In this document: positions 13,851 to 16,901 of the stretch, one piece after another
How positions within the stretch are numbered: position 1 is the first letter of the stretch
Layout: every line of letters begins with the position of its first letter
Assembly: GCA_902797105.1 (NCBI GenBank)
Contig: CADBRL010000029.1
Span: 1 to 37,246 of the forward strand
DNA length: 37,246 bases
Source: an uncultured Erysipelotrichaceae bacterium
Lineage (GTDB): Bacteria > Bacillota_I > Bacilli_A > RF39 > UBA660
Reading direction: 5' to 3'
Notes under the pieces: model-generated
What the model was told of the DNA's origin: nothing
Database searches by the model: none
Seen by the model: the letters and a program-made list of their open reading frames with translations, nothing else
Program-made: the position numbers and the translations under genes

Positions 13851-14264
13851 TTATCTTTTTCTAACAATTTCACTTGGTATTTTAAGCATTATTTTTCCTT
13901 CTTTTATTAATAATAAACAAAGTAATTGATTGGATAAATTAATTAATTTTTTGCATTCATTATTTATTTCTTCTAAACTATGTTTATCATTTATTTTTTG
14001 ACTTTTTAAAGATAAACTAATAACTTCTGAATTAATTAAATTTCGTTTTTTTAATATTGCTTCAAATGATTTATTAATAAATTCATCATAATCTAACACA
14101 AAGCTAGCTTCTTTTACTTTATTTTTAATTTCATCACCTTCTATTTCAACAAAATCTATACCTAAAGTAACATCTATATAATAACTAACATCAAATGGTT
14201 TACCAAATATTAAACCTAAATCTCTTTTCTGTACACATACCTTATTATCTCTTATAATTTTCAA
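13851..14264 (-). CDS. hypothetical protein (TTG start)
   Basis: 137 aa ORF with AAGGGTGA SD 5-6 nt before the TTG. No recognisable motif and no CxxxCxxC cluster, so it is not NrdG. Confidence 0.45.
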   Translation of the reverse strand: MKIIRDNKVCVQKRDLGLIFGKPFDVSYYIDVTLGIDFVEIEGDEIKNKVKEASFVLDYDEFINKSFEAILKKRNLINSEVISLSLKSQKINDKHSLEEINNECKKLINLSNQLLCLLLIKEGKIMLKIPSEIVRKR

Positions 14265-14331
14265 CTAAATCACCCTTGTAAACAACTATTATACCTTGAT
14301 TATATGAAAAAAGCTAGCTTTTTAGCTAACT

Positions 14332-14514
14332 TTATTTACTACAAGAGCAAGTTTTAAAAGTATGTTTTACTCTATCATGTTCTTCGGCTTTTTTACCATT
14401 ATTGAAACGTTCTACTGTACCTACTAAATATCCTGTAATTCTTCTAATTCTTTCGAATTCTACTCCTTCGCCTGTTACTTTTTTTGATTTTACTTCTTCT
14501 TCAATTTTTTCCAT
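14332..14514 (-). CDS. stand-alone glycyl-radical module of class III ribonucleotide reductase
   Basis: 60 aa. RIRRITGYLVGTVERFNNGKKAEEHDRVKH matches my recollection of the NrdD C-terminal glycyl-radical signature (RRTCGYLG ... N.GK..E...RVKH in E. coli). Own AAGGAGA SD 6 nt before the ATG. Reading frame differs from the large ORF. Confidence 0.75.
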   Translation of the reverse strand: MEKIEEEVKSKKVTGEGVEFERIRRITGYLVGTVERFNNGKKAEEHDRVKHTFKTCSCSK

Positions 14515-14525
14515 ACTACTTCTCC

Positions 14526-16844
14526 TTATTCCTTTCCTTCTAATCTTTTTAGTAAATCAACACTAACTGGTTCACCAGTTTTTCTACCGCATCTTGGACA
14601 AACATCTTTAATAATTCCAACATATCCACAAACTGGATCTCTATCTACCGGATGGTTTATTGCACCATATCCAATATCACTTTCCTTCATTATTCTAACT
14701 ACACTTTCAAATGCTTCTAAGTTATCTGATGGGTCACCATCAAGTTCAATATAACTAATATGTCCAGCATTCGTAAACTTATGATATGCTCCTTCAAGTC
14801 TTAGTTTATCTGCAATTGATATATTGTAATAAACTGGAACATGGAATGAATTTGTATAATATGCTCTATCTGTTACTCCTTTAATTTTACCATAAATATC
14901 TCTATCAATATTTACAAATCTTCCAGACAATCCTTCAGCTGGTGTTGCTAATAACGTAAAATTCAAATTATACTTTTCACTATATTCGTCACATTTTGCT
15001 CTCATATGACCAATAATTTCTATTCCAAGTTTTTGTGATTCTTCAGATTCACCATGATGTTTTAATGTTAAAGCCTTTAAACATTCTGCAAGACCAATAA
15101 ACCCAATTGAAAGTGTACCATGCTTTAATACTTTCTTTAATTTATCATTTGGTTTTAACTTATCACTATCAAGCCAAACTCCTTGACCCATTAAAAATGG
15201 AAAATTATATACTCTTTTATTACATTGAATTTCATATCTTTCAAGTAATTGATCTTTTACAAGTTCCATTAATTCATCAAGTTCTTCATAAAAGCCTTCC
15301 ATATCAGCTTTATCCAAAGCATCTTTACCAACAACACCATGTTTAATACCAATTCTTGGAAGATTAATTGATGTAAATGAAAGATTTCCTCTACCTGGTG
15401 TAATTTGTTTATCAGGGTCAACCACATTACCTATAACTCTTGTACGGCATCCCATATAACCTACTTCAGTTCTATAATCTCCCTCTTTATAATAAGGTTT
15501 ATTAAATGAGCTGTCTAAGAAAGACCAATTTGGAAATAATCTCTTGGCAGAAACTCTTAAACTTAATTTAAATAAATCATAGTTAGGGTCTTCAGGATTA
15601 TAGTTAACACCTTCTTTTACTTTAAATATTGAAATTGGAAATATCGGTGTTTCACCATGTCCAAGTCCTGCTTCACTAGCAAGCATATAGTTTTTAGTAA
15701 CCATTCTACCTTCACTAGATGTATCTGTACCAAAGTTAATTGATGAAAATGGCACTTGAGCTCCAGCTCTTGAATGCATTGTATTTAAATTATGAACAAA
15801 AGCTTCCATTGCTTGATATGTTCTCTTTTCAGTTTTTTCCAAAGATTTCTTTAATGCTAAATCAAACATTCTTTTCATTAATTTTGAATCTTTATAATAT
15901 TTTTCAAAATAATCAACAGTTATATCTATTGTACTAATTTTAGCAATATCTTTTTCAATACTATTCATATTGATAAAATCATTCAAATCTTCTAAATCAA
16001 CATAATCCTTAATAGATGTTTTAACCATTTTTTTAAATGTTTTTAAAACACCTGGTGCTAAATAATAATCAAATGCCGGAATACTTTGTCCACCATGTTG
16101 ATCATTTTGATTAGATTGAACAGCTATCGCAGCAAGTGCAGAATAACTCATAATATCATTTGGTTCTCTTAAATGGCCATGACCAGTTGAAAATCCATTT
16201 TTAAATAATTTATCTAAATCAATTTGCATACATGTTGTTGTACCCATTGCTTCAAAATCCATATCATGAATATGAATATATCCTTCATCATGAGCATCCG
16301 CAAATTTTTTCTTCATTAAATATGATTTAGCAAATTCTCTAGAAACATTTGACCCAAATTGAAGCATTGTTCCCATCGCTGAGTTTCCATCTATGTTTCC
16401 ATTTTCTCTTTTGGCATCATCTTCTGCAGCACTTTTAAGAGCTAAACCTTCCAAAGTCTTTAAAAACTTATGACTTCTTTTATCATCTGTAAATGCTTCT
16501 CTTGCTTTAGTTCTATTTTCTCTATAATTAGCAAAATTTTCATAAACATCATCATATTTATCTTTTTTCAAAGTATCTTCGATTATATCTTGAATATCTT
16601 CAATCTTAATACTTGCTTTATCACTATAATCTTTTTCAATTCTTTTAATTACGTGACCATATACTTTTTGGATATCACTTGATGAATATTTTAAAATTTC
16701 ATCATCATCCTCGTTTGTAACTTTAATACTATCAAAGCCCTTTTTAATTGCCATGGCTATCTTAGTTCCATTAAAACTTACTTTAGAACCATTCCTTTTA
16801 ACCACTTTAATTGTTTCAAAAAATTCTTCTTCCTTATTTGGCAT
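14526..16844 (-). CDS. nrdD: anaerobic ribonucleoside-triphosphate reductase, large part (lacks the glycyl-radical segment)
   Basis: 772 aa. N-terminal ATP-cone (IKVVKRNGSKVSFNGTKI), class III RNR core. Ends just after the Zn-ribbon VCGYVGIIKDVCPRCG. Confidence 0.93.
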   Translation of the reverse strand: MPNKEEEFFETIKVVKRNGSKVSFNGTKIAMAIKKGFDSIKVTNEDDDEILKYSSSDIQKVYGHVIKRIEKDYSDKASIKIEDIQDIIEDTLKKDKYDDVYENFANYRENRTKAREAFTDDKRSHKFLKTLEGLALKSAAEDDAKRENGNIDGNSAMGTMLQFGSNVSREFAKSYLMKKKFADAHDEGYIHIHDMDFEAMGTTTCMQIDLDKLFKNGFSTGHGHLREPNDIMSYSALAAIAVQSNQNDQHGGQSIPAFDYYLAPGVLKTFKKMVKTSIKDYVDLEDLNDFINMNSIEKDIAKISTIDITVDYFEKYYKDSKLMKRMFDLALKKSLEKTEKRTYQAMEAFVHNLNTMHSRAGAQVPFSSINFGTDTSSEGRMVTKNYMLASEAGLGHGETPIFPISIFKVKEGVNYNPEDPNYDLFKLSLRVSAKRLFPNWSFLDSSFNKPYYKEGDYRTEVGYMGCRTRVIGNVVDPDKQITPGRGNLSFTSINLPRIGIKHGVVGKDALDKADMEGFYEELDELMELVKDQLLERYEIQCNKRVYNFPFLMGQGVWLDSDKLKPNDKLKKVLKHGTLSIGFIGLAECLKALTLKHHGESEESQKLGIEIIGHMRAKCDEYSEKYNLNFTLLATPAEGLSGRFVNIDRDIYGKIKGVTDRAYYTNSFHVPVYYNISIADKLRLEGAYHKFTNAGHISYIELDGDPSDNLEAFESVVRIMKESDIGYGAINHPVDRDPVCGYVGIIKDVCPRCGRKTGEPVSVDLLKRLEGKE

Positions 16845-16872: not shown

Positions 16873-16901
16873 ATTATAGTATACTTCAAGATAATTGTCC
16901 A
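16873..16901 (-). promoter_or_regulatory. nrdD promoter
   Basis: Minus strand has TGGACA (16896-16901), 17-nt spacer, TATAAT (16873-16878). Short leader to the GGAAGG SD. Confidence 0.45.

Follow-up and report, generated by a model that had tools for sequence, protein, structure and literature searches.

A 37,246-nt stretch of DNA from an uncultured Erysipelotrichaceae bacterium of the gut (GenBank GCA_902797105.1, contig CADBRL010000029.1, positions 1 to 37,246; hereafter the window) contains an nrdD locus in which a class III (anaerobic, glycyl-radical) ribonucleotide reductase (RNR) is encoded in two pieces. A 772-aa open reading frame (ORF) provides the catalytic body, while the radical loop is found on a separate 60-aa ORF directly behind it, and the two chains very probably form a functional two-gene enzyme. 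The ORF coordinates and the family matches agree with the earlier note on this DNA, which had read the locus as an NrdD truly split into a catalytic ORF and a separately translated glycyl-radical module. On the sequence evidence assembled here, we regard the pair as a real and conserved two-chain class III RNR, i.e., as a known enzyme in a form previously undescribed in the literature searched, and this two-chain enzyme is most likely obligate in the bacterium of the window.

The large ORF (14526..16844, minus strand) codes for an ATP-cone (residues 12-112), the catalytic barrel and a Zn site, and it lacks the glycyl-radical loop. It ends in ...CPRCGRKTGEPVSVDLLKRLEGKE followed by a TAA codon, 19 residues beyond the CPRCG of its zinc ribbon. 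The Shine-Dalgarno (SD) sequence AAGGAG (14522..14527, minus strand) overlaps this stop codon and precedes by 7 nt the ATG of the small ORF at 14514, which is located 11 nt past the stop and opens the -1 frame. The resulting 60-aa subunit (14332..14514, minus strand; full sequence MEKIEEEVKSKKVTGEGVEFERIRRITGYLVGTVERFNNGKKAEEHDRVKHTFKTCSCSK) contains the NrdD glycyl-radical loop RIRRITGYLVGTVERFNNGKKAEEHDRVKH behind its own ATG, and its frame is shut by a TGA 14 codons upstream of this start. The position of the TAA, the SD sequence lying over it, the ATG in a new frame and the upstream TGA are exactly as the earlier note had described them. Both ORFs combined span the NrdD model NF005497 end to end, and this model as well as an alignment to the closest solved structure, the NrdD of Prevotella copri (8P23), place the break precisely at the boundary of Zn site and glycyl loop. 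Counted over both chains, 47 residues lie between the last Zn Cys and the radical Gly, rather than the approximately 42 estimated before. Compared with single-chain NrdD, about 30 extra residues flank the break, consisting of the 19 residues ending the large chain and about 17 residues opening the small one, and no family match beyond NRDD was found in either of these two extensions. Because of these approximately 30 extra residue-equivalents between Zn site and Gly, no single indel would restore a normal gene, as had already been argued.

The assignment of the large chain is based on a score of 1020 bits against NCBIfam NF005497 (cut-off 764), covering model positions 3-711 of 746, on Pfam matches to PF13597 (NRDD, 626 bits) and to an N-terminal ATP-cone (46.5 bits), and on its alignment to residues 9-705 of 8P23. 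The predicted thiyl-radical cysteine, Cys466 (codon 15447..15449, minus strand), is part of an MGCRTRV loop identical to the aligned Cys loop of the P. copri enzyme, where the thiyl-radical cysteine is named Cys416 (PMC11226230). The predicted Zn site is found in the segment DRDPVC-x9-CPRC (14589..14645, minus strand; Asp736, Cys739, Cys749 and Cys752) and shows three Cys plus an Asp in place of the expected four-Cys arrangement (CxxC...CxxC), with the Asp standing where P. copri has its first Cys. The three cysteines had been recognized earlier, but their spacing is C-x9-C-x2-C and not C-x10-C-x2-C as then given. Since the same three-Cys-plus-Asp variant (DRDPVC...CPxC) occurs in fused relatives as well, it should be regarded as unrelated to the split. 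The idea that the TCSCSK tail at the C-terminus of the small protein might supply the fourth Zn ligand had to be abandoned: the tail is not conserved in the genus, being missing in the split same-genus species L014, L017 and L021, which makes it unlikely to be a required ligand, and the site with three Cys and one Asp is also present in fused enzymes. The glycyl-radical loop (RxxGY) is placed on the 60-aa ORF instead of the polypeptide forming the barrel. Leaving aside the variant Zn site, the locus shows, as judged from its sequence, every testable NrdD feature with a single exception that helps to define the enzyme, namely a radical loop in cis.

The small chain matches NF005497 at model positions 710-744 and aligns to residues 707-738 of 8P23, including the radical glycine, which is named Gly711 in the P. 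copri enzyme (PMC11226230). Its own predicted radical glycine, Gly28 (codon 14431..14433, minus strand), aligns to the ITGY glycine of 8P23. The glycyl-radical domain of the pyruvate formate-lyase type (PF01228) is absent from the 60-aa protein, for which a Pfam scan at E values up to 1 gives only PF13597. Public assemblies contain this exact protein in 611 indexed blocks, and homologues of 33-105 aa make up 7766 clusters in the protein database. The three small proteins bearing an NCBI name are all listed as 'hypothetical protein', and a large chain without a radical loop could pass for a truncated gene during annotation.

The small ORF and all parts of the large chain are under purifying selection, with ratios of nonsynonymous to synonymous substitution (dN/dS) of 0.14 for the core of the small ORF (at a pS of 0.57) and, within the genus, of 0.11 for the body and 0.28 for the 16-codon tail of the large chain. 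One NrdD locus each, which is always split, was found in the window genome and in four near-complete (at least 92%) genomes of the genus, and the class I/II RNR family PF02867 is unmatched in these five genomes, the window genome being a metagenome-assembled genome (MAG) of 72% completeness and the other four being at least 92% complete. It follows that deoxynucleotides are apparently supplied by the split enzyme alone. A gene for the activase NrdG is not adjacent, as noted before, and was found intact on another contig (C40) after whiA; it codes for 168 aa with a CxxxCxxC motif and scores 152.9 bits against TIGR02491 (cut-off 126.1). A promoter-like site, TGGACA-17 nt-TATAAT, with 11 of 12 consensus matches (16873..16901, minus strand; a consensus match only) lies just upstream of the large ORF, and a hairpin resembling an intrinsic terminator, consisting of a 10-bp stem and a T run (14310..14333, minus strand), starts inside the stop codon of the small ORF (14332-14334). 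As a consensus and terminator scan revealed no convincing promoter or terminator between the two ORFs, the pair looks like one transcription unit.

The survey of related nrdD loci proposed in the earlier note revealed the same split in the genus and in the family. The small ORF is present as an open frame of its own (62-77 aa) in 17 of 24 same-genus genomes, and in all 17 the large ORF ends alike (...LEGKE or a close variant), with the ATG following 1-16 nt further on. For the wider survey, 201 genomes of 0.7-1.6 Mb were drawn evenly from the order of the window, representing 98 genera and nearly all belonging to one family. A Gly-loop match is found in 102 of them, of which 82 are split (54-80 aa) and 20 fused as judged by open-frame length. 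The fused open frames measure 454-814 aa, 19 of the 20 falling between 716 and 814 aa, while the frame of 454 aa is probably cut by a contig end. Outside this family, NrdD is mostly fused, according to a draw of 400 genomes from the phylum, in which all rows belong to the class Bacilli. A pattern scan with one genome per species, which is biased towards the query, yielded 80 loci, comprising about 57 split ones with an adjacent large ORF, six truly fused ones, and about 17 with the small protein and no large NrdD ORF found immediately upstream. Split loci also occur in many MAGs of Clostridia, namely of Oscillospiraceae, Butyricicoccus and Acutalibacteraceae. Open-frame length alone may be misleading in family f12 (genera g118 and g119), whose genomes of about 1.2 Mb on one contig contain NrdD frames apparently broken by TGA, with open stretches of about 170 aa. 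Lineages that read TGA as Trp would explain this better than split genes, and such frames should be excluded from counts of this kind. Among phage records, a tblastn search gave 16 weak matches and did not confirm the small gene alone: the best match (MT837933, unverified) is a fused NrdD of 787 aa, and the matches in Clostridioides difficile phages lie under annotated nrdD genes.

A tree of the large chains calculated with exclusion of the radical region places the window in a well-supported clade, in which 48 of 49 rows are split, and at least 4-6 changes between fused and split state are needed over the whole tree. The single fused NrdD of the genus (L022, G019:C5:796-3912), with a frame of 804 aa, has a very long branch and groups with sequences from Clostridia. 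This position indicates a different gene copy rather than a revertant, so a re-fusion within the genus was rejected; the gene may represent a horizontal replacement or a contamination of the bin.

The extra residues at the break provide a hint at the origin of the two genes. Fused relatives contain one motif of the type ...CPxCGRxExDGVxFERIRRITGY..., and split loci contain it twice, once at the head of the small protein's radical segment (GEGVxFERIRRITGY) and once, as a degenerate copy, in the large-chain tail right behind the Zn site. In the window, this tail, GEPVSVDLLKRLEGKE (14529..14576, minus strand), is similar to the beginning of the radical segment, GEGVEFERIRRITGYL, and probably represents what remains of a duplicated first copy. 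The tails of Oscillospiraceae have a long form, such as GEGVPLEKLKKLGLYKNYNSTTIGYHGDQNEEADRTPNP, which matches the entire radical segment colinearly as far as the EExDR motif. Shuffle tests gave a p value of about 0.0015 for the tail of the window against the radical segment. Six of the nine pairs tested, among them that of the window, had p values of about 0.0005-0.005, with the weakest pair being non-significant and the pairs not being independent of each other. A profile-profile alignment of the longer tails of the relatives extends over 39 columns end to end with a single gap (E 0.0018). As far as these sequence comparisons go, the radical segment was probably duplicated in tandem, with the first copy decaying or being truncated into the tail and the second one gaining a start site. 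The coding region of the tail also contains a perfect 6-bp hairpin without a T run, AACTGG-TGAA-CCAGTT (14565-14580, minus strand), about 40 nt before the stop codon and SD sequence, which was picked up by the terminator scan and could affect coupling or be there by chance.

The mechanism expected for the pair is close to that of a normal NrdD. One transcript would give rise to the 772-aa chain and, from its own SD sequence and ATG, to the 60-aa chain. The unlinked activase NrdG would then abstract a hydrogen from Gly28, placing the radical on the small chain, whose loop would dock in the barrel beside Cys466 as the covalent C-terminus does in single-chain NrdD. After docking, catalysis would be expected to run as in the single-chain enzyme. 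The radical domain of P. copri NrdD has been described as a mobile unit, which moves out of the barrel and back in and can be fully disordered (PMC11226230). For GrcA/YfiD, activation of the free protein and its trans-acting rescue of pyruvate formate-lyase after cleavage by oxygen are known (PMC8683613, PMC13450708). These two precedents make a two-chain mechanism plausible.

In every characterized glycyl radical enzyme, to our knowledge, the radical glycine belongs to the catalytic polypeptide, and the only free radical domains we know of are GrcA/YfiD and Y06I, which are back-ups for pyruvate formate-lyase. The order of features in the window, with ATP-cone, MGCRTRV barrel, predicted Zn site and RRITGY loop, is that of the single-chain NrdD proteins operating with NrdG (P. 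copri, 8P23; phage T4, 1H78), and the small chain even keeps their NxGKxxExxxRxxH tail after the glycyl loop. The differences consist in the first Zn Cys of the P. copri enzyme, which is replaced by Asp in the window as in its fused relatives, and in the radical glycine residing on a separate 60-aa product with its own SD sequence and ATG. The resemblance to GrcA/YfiD of Escherichia coli, which the earlier note had pointed out, and likewise to Y06I of phage T4, holds insofar as the small protein is free-standing and has a glycyl-radical loop as its only recognizable content. By analogy, it may also be activated by the activase of its parent enzyme and act in trans on a body devoid of a loop. 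The resemblance fails with respect to the family, the loop being of the NrdD type (PF13597) without a PF01228 match on a protein of 60 aa compared with about 127 aa, and with respect to the role, because the small protein represents the only radical loop of its partner, and the sole one in five genomes of the genus, rather than a spare. In addition, the small gene is apparently co-transcribed and translationally coupled with that of its partner, unlike GrcA/YfiD.

A closer counterpart of such a spare part may exist elsewhere among the Bacillota. Orphan proteins of 92-123 aa with an NrdD-type loop were found in a Ruminococcus MAG (L068:2890-3186) and at the loci L120 and L121, and further ones are present in six genomes of the 400-genome Bacilli draw (G271, G289, G312, G375, G474 and G565). 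These genes do not adjoin nrdD, and in all three of the orphan-bearing genomes checked, a full-length NrdD with its own loop is also present. These orphan proteins of Ruminococcus-like and other Bacillota share with the small chain of the window the core FERIRRITGYLVGTxDRFNxxKRAEExDRVKH on a small separate protein, and they differ by an additional N-terminal domain of about 50 aa (KEIDxYV...DGEYVDVxY) and by often being unlinked to nrdD. They are candidates for a true spare part of class III RNR, unlike the most likely obligate protein of the window. Neither split NrdD nor the orphan loop proteins were found described in the full-text literature searched, the coverage of which is incomplete, so that a report may exist; a review on glycyl radical enzymes from June 2026 limits the known spare-part proteins to those of formate lyases and gives their occurrence elsewhere as undetermined.

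Several observations weigh against the proposal of an obligate, docking two-chain enzyme of duplicated origin. About half of the family (99 of the 199 other genomes, all but one of those drawn being at least 90% complete) is without an NrdD Gly-loop match, which suggests that RNR may be dispensable or replaced in some relatives and weakens the argument from essentiality. The profile support for the duplication is modest, the hhalign probability being 15% at the E value of 0.0018. Docking is without computational support: in an AF2 proxy consisting of the single-chain read-through of the related in-frame locus L045 (TAG read as Q; 18 and then 84 alignment rows), the body reached a mean pLDDT of 75.5 with 18 and 82.4 with 84 rows, whereas the radical segment (residues 761-816) stayed at about 35-55 in both runs, so that the model speaks neither for nor against docking or contacts between the tail and the head of the chains. 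Finally, any advantage of the split in terms of repair is pure inference, and the fission could be neutral.

Oxygen cuts the chain of glycyl-radical enzymes at the radical glycine, so that in the split form such damage would cost the cell a replaceable peptide of 60 aa and spare the rest of the enzyme. It is plausible, though less likely than not, that the small subunit of the window works as an exchangeable cartridge, with NrdG charging free 60-aa subunits and those cleaved by oxygen at Gly28 being swapped for fresh ones in the 772-aa body. A neutral fission has a reasonable, if somewhat less than even, chance of being the correct explanation; here, the chains would assemble into an ordinary NrdD without any advantage, and the split would persist since re-fusion is unlikely after a duplication and the gain of a new start. 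This explanation is in line with the lack of a visible benefit in the data, with the presence of fused and split forms side by side in one family (20 versus 82) and with the 4-6 or more state changes on the tree. Moreover, the tight junction of the window, with a spacer of 11 nt and the SD sequence over the stop codon, argues for roughly equimolar synthesis of the chains and suits a ratio near 1:1 rather than the excess expected of a spare part. On the other hand, the split is the prevailing form in a family of about 100 genera and is met again in Clostridia, and even the vestigial tail is still constrained. Selection on trans-acting loops is also suggested by the orphan radical-loop proteins beside full-length NrdD, which argue that such loops are useful in their own right.

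The remaining alternatives concern the two-chain enzyme itself. It appears very improbable that the small protein serves another, complete NrdD as a spare part in the manner of GrcA, with the 772-aa chain being inactive or otherwise employed. Orphan NrdD-type loop proteins do coexist with full-length NrdD in other genomes, but a second NrdD locus is found neither in the window genome nor in the four near-complete genomes of its genus. Furthermore, the large chain retains thiyl Cys loop, ATP-cone and predicted Zn site, exceeds the equivalog cut-off and is under strong purifying selection, and its gene lies next to that of the small protein at 67 distinct junctions.

These junctions, drawn from the genus and from the 80 loci of other genomes, also bear on the question of whether the two ORFs may be joined during translation. 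A programmed recoding event, either by a -1 frameshift or by stop read-through in species with in-frame ORFs, would yield one NrdD of normal length and render the separate start irrelevant. The window offers some basis for this idea, since its small frame is open for 14 codons 5' of the ATG, overlapping the end of the large ORF, and an A-rich run, CTAAAAAGA, sits in this overlap. However, the run does not form a canonical X XXY YYZ heptamer and reads CTTAAAAGA in close relatives, and in L006, L007 and L008 a stop codon shuts the small frame only two codons before the ATG. Nor is the frame relation a fixed one, the relative frames 0, +1 and +2 occurring 17, 24 and 26 times among the 67 junctions. 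It differs even between loci with identical small proteins (L005 versus L006 and L007): the spacers of L005 and L006 measure 11 and 10 nt, and because of this single base the frames differ. The stop codons of the large ORFs vary as well (45 TAA, 20 TAG and 2 TGA), the intergenic gaps range from -1 to 284 nt with a median of 15 nt, and the small ORF starts with ATG at 66 and is preceded by an SD-like motif at 65 of the 67 junctions. No single frameshift or read-through mechanism fits such variable frames and stops, whereas independent initiation does. A programmed -1 frameshift of the dnaX or IS3 type was rejected in particular, since neither the conserved slippery heptamer nor the fixed frame relation it needs is found, and recoding in general is extremely improbable, all the more as no Rfam element is present at the junction. 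An interruption of nrdD by an intein, an intron or a mobile insert was likewise rejected in view of the spacer of only 11 nt and the missing Rfam match.

An indel introduced by sequencing or assembly, or an nrdD gene inactivated only recently, might be suspected in a fragmented MAG of 122 contigs and 72% completeness. The chance that either accounts for the locus is practically negligible, as the 772-aa and 60-aa genes are called side by side in eight of eight independent metagenome contigs from different samples and assemblers, and the split is kept across genus and family, where synonymous divergence has reached about 0.5 per site with dN/dS values of 0.11-0.28 throughout. Moreover, no RNR gene other than the pair was found in the five genomes of the genus. 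The check for a pseudogene proposed earlier led to the same result, since close relatives share the split, a second nrdD was not found in the genome, and neither ORF shows a lesion or relaxed selection.

Directly downstream of the pair, beyond the terminator-like hairpin, the window contains an ORF of 137 aa with a TTG start and no Pfam match (13851-14264, minus strand), and close relatives have a different ORF of 160 aa in its place, with no Pfam hit on record. In near relatives with genomes of about 1.2 Mb (loci L108-L115), sporulation-related genes (SpoIIIAH, Germane and a GerE-type regulator) adjoin the nrdD pair, while the window has RNase Y at this position, pointing to local rearrangement between close strains.

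With the two-chain NrdD, the radical loop of a class III RNR is encoded apart from its catalytic body naturally, stably and widely, in organisms in which no other RNR was found. The split enzyme may therefore serve as a ready-made system for studying how the activase acts on a free loop compared with the complex and how the loop enters the barrel. It would likewise allow one to ask whether the regulation by the ATP-cone via the mobility of the radical domain, as in P. copri NrdD, survives the split, and whether an exchange of subunits repairs oxygen damage. If the small subunit indeed acts as an exchangeable cartridge, the cell would mend its sole RNR for about 7% of what a new enzyme costs, and together with the orphan loop proteins this would establish trans-acting radical loops as a repair strategy that glycyl radical enzymes use generally and not just in the case of pyruvate formate-lyase.

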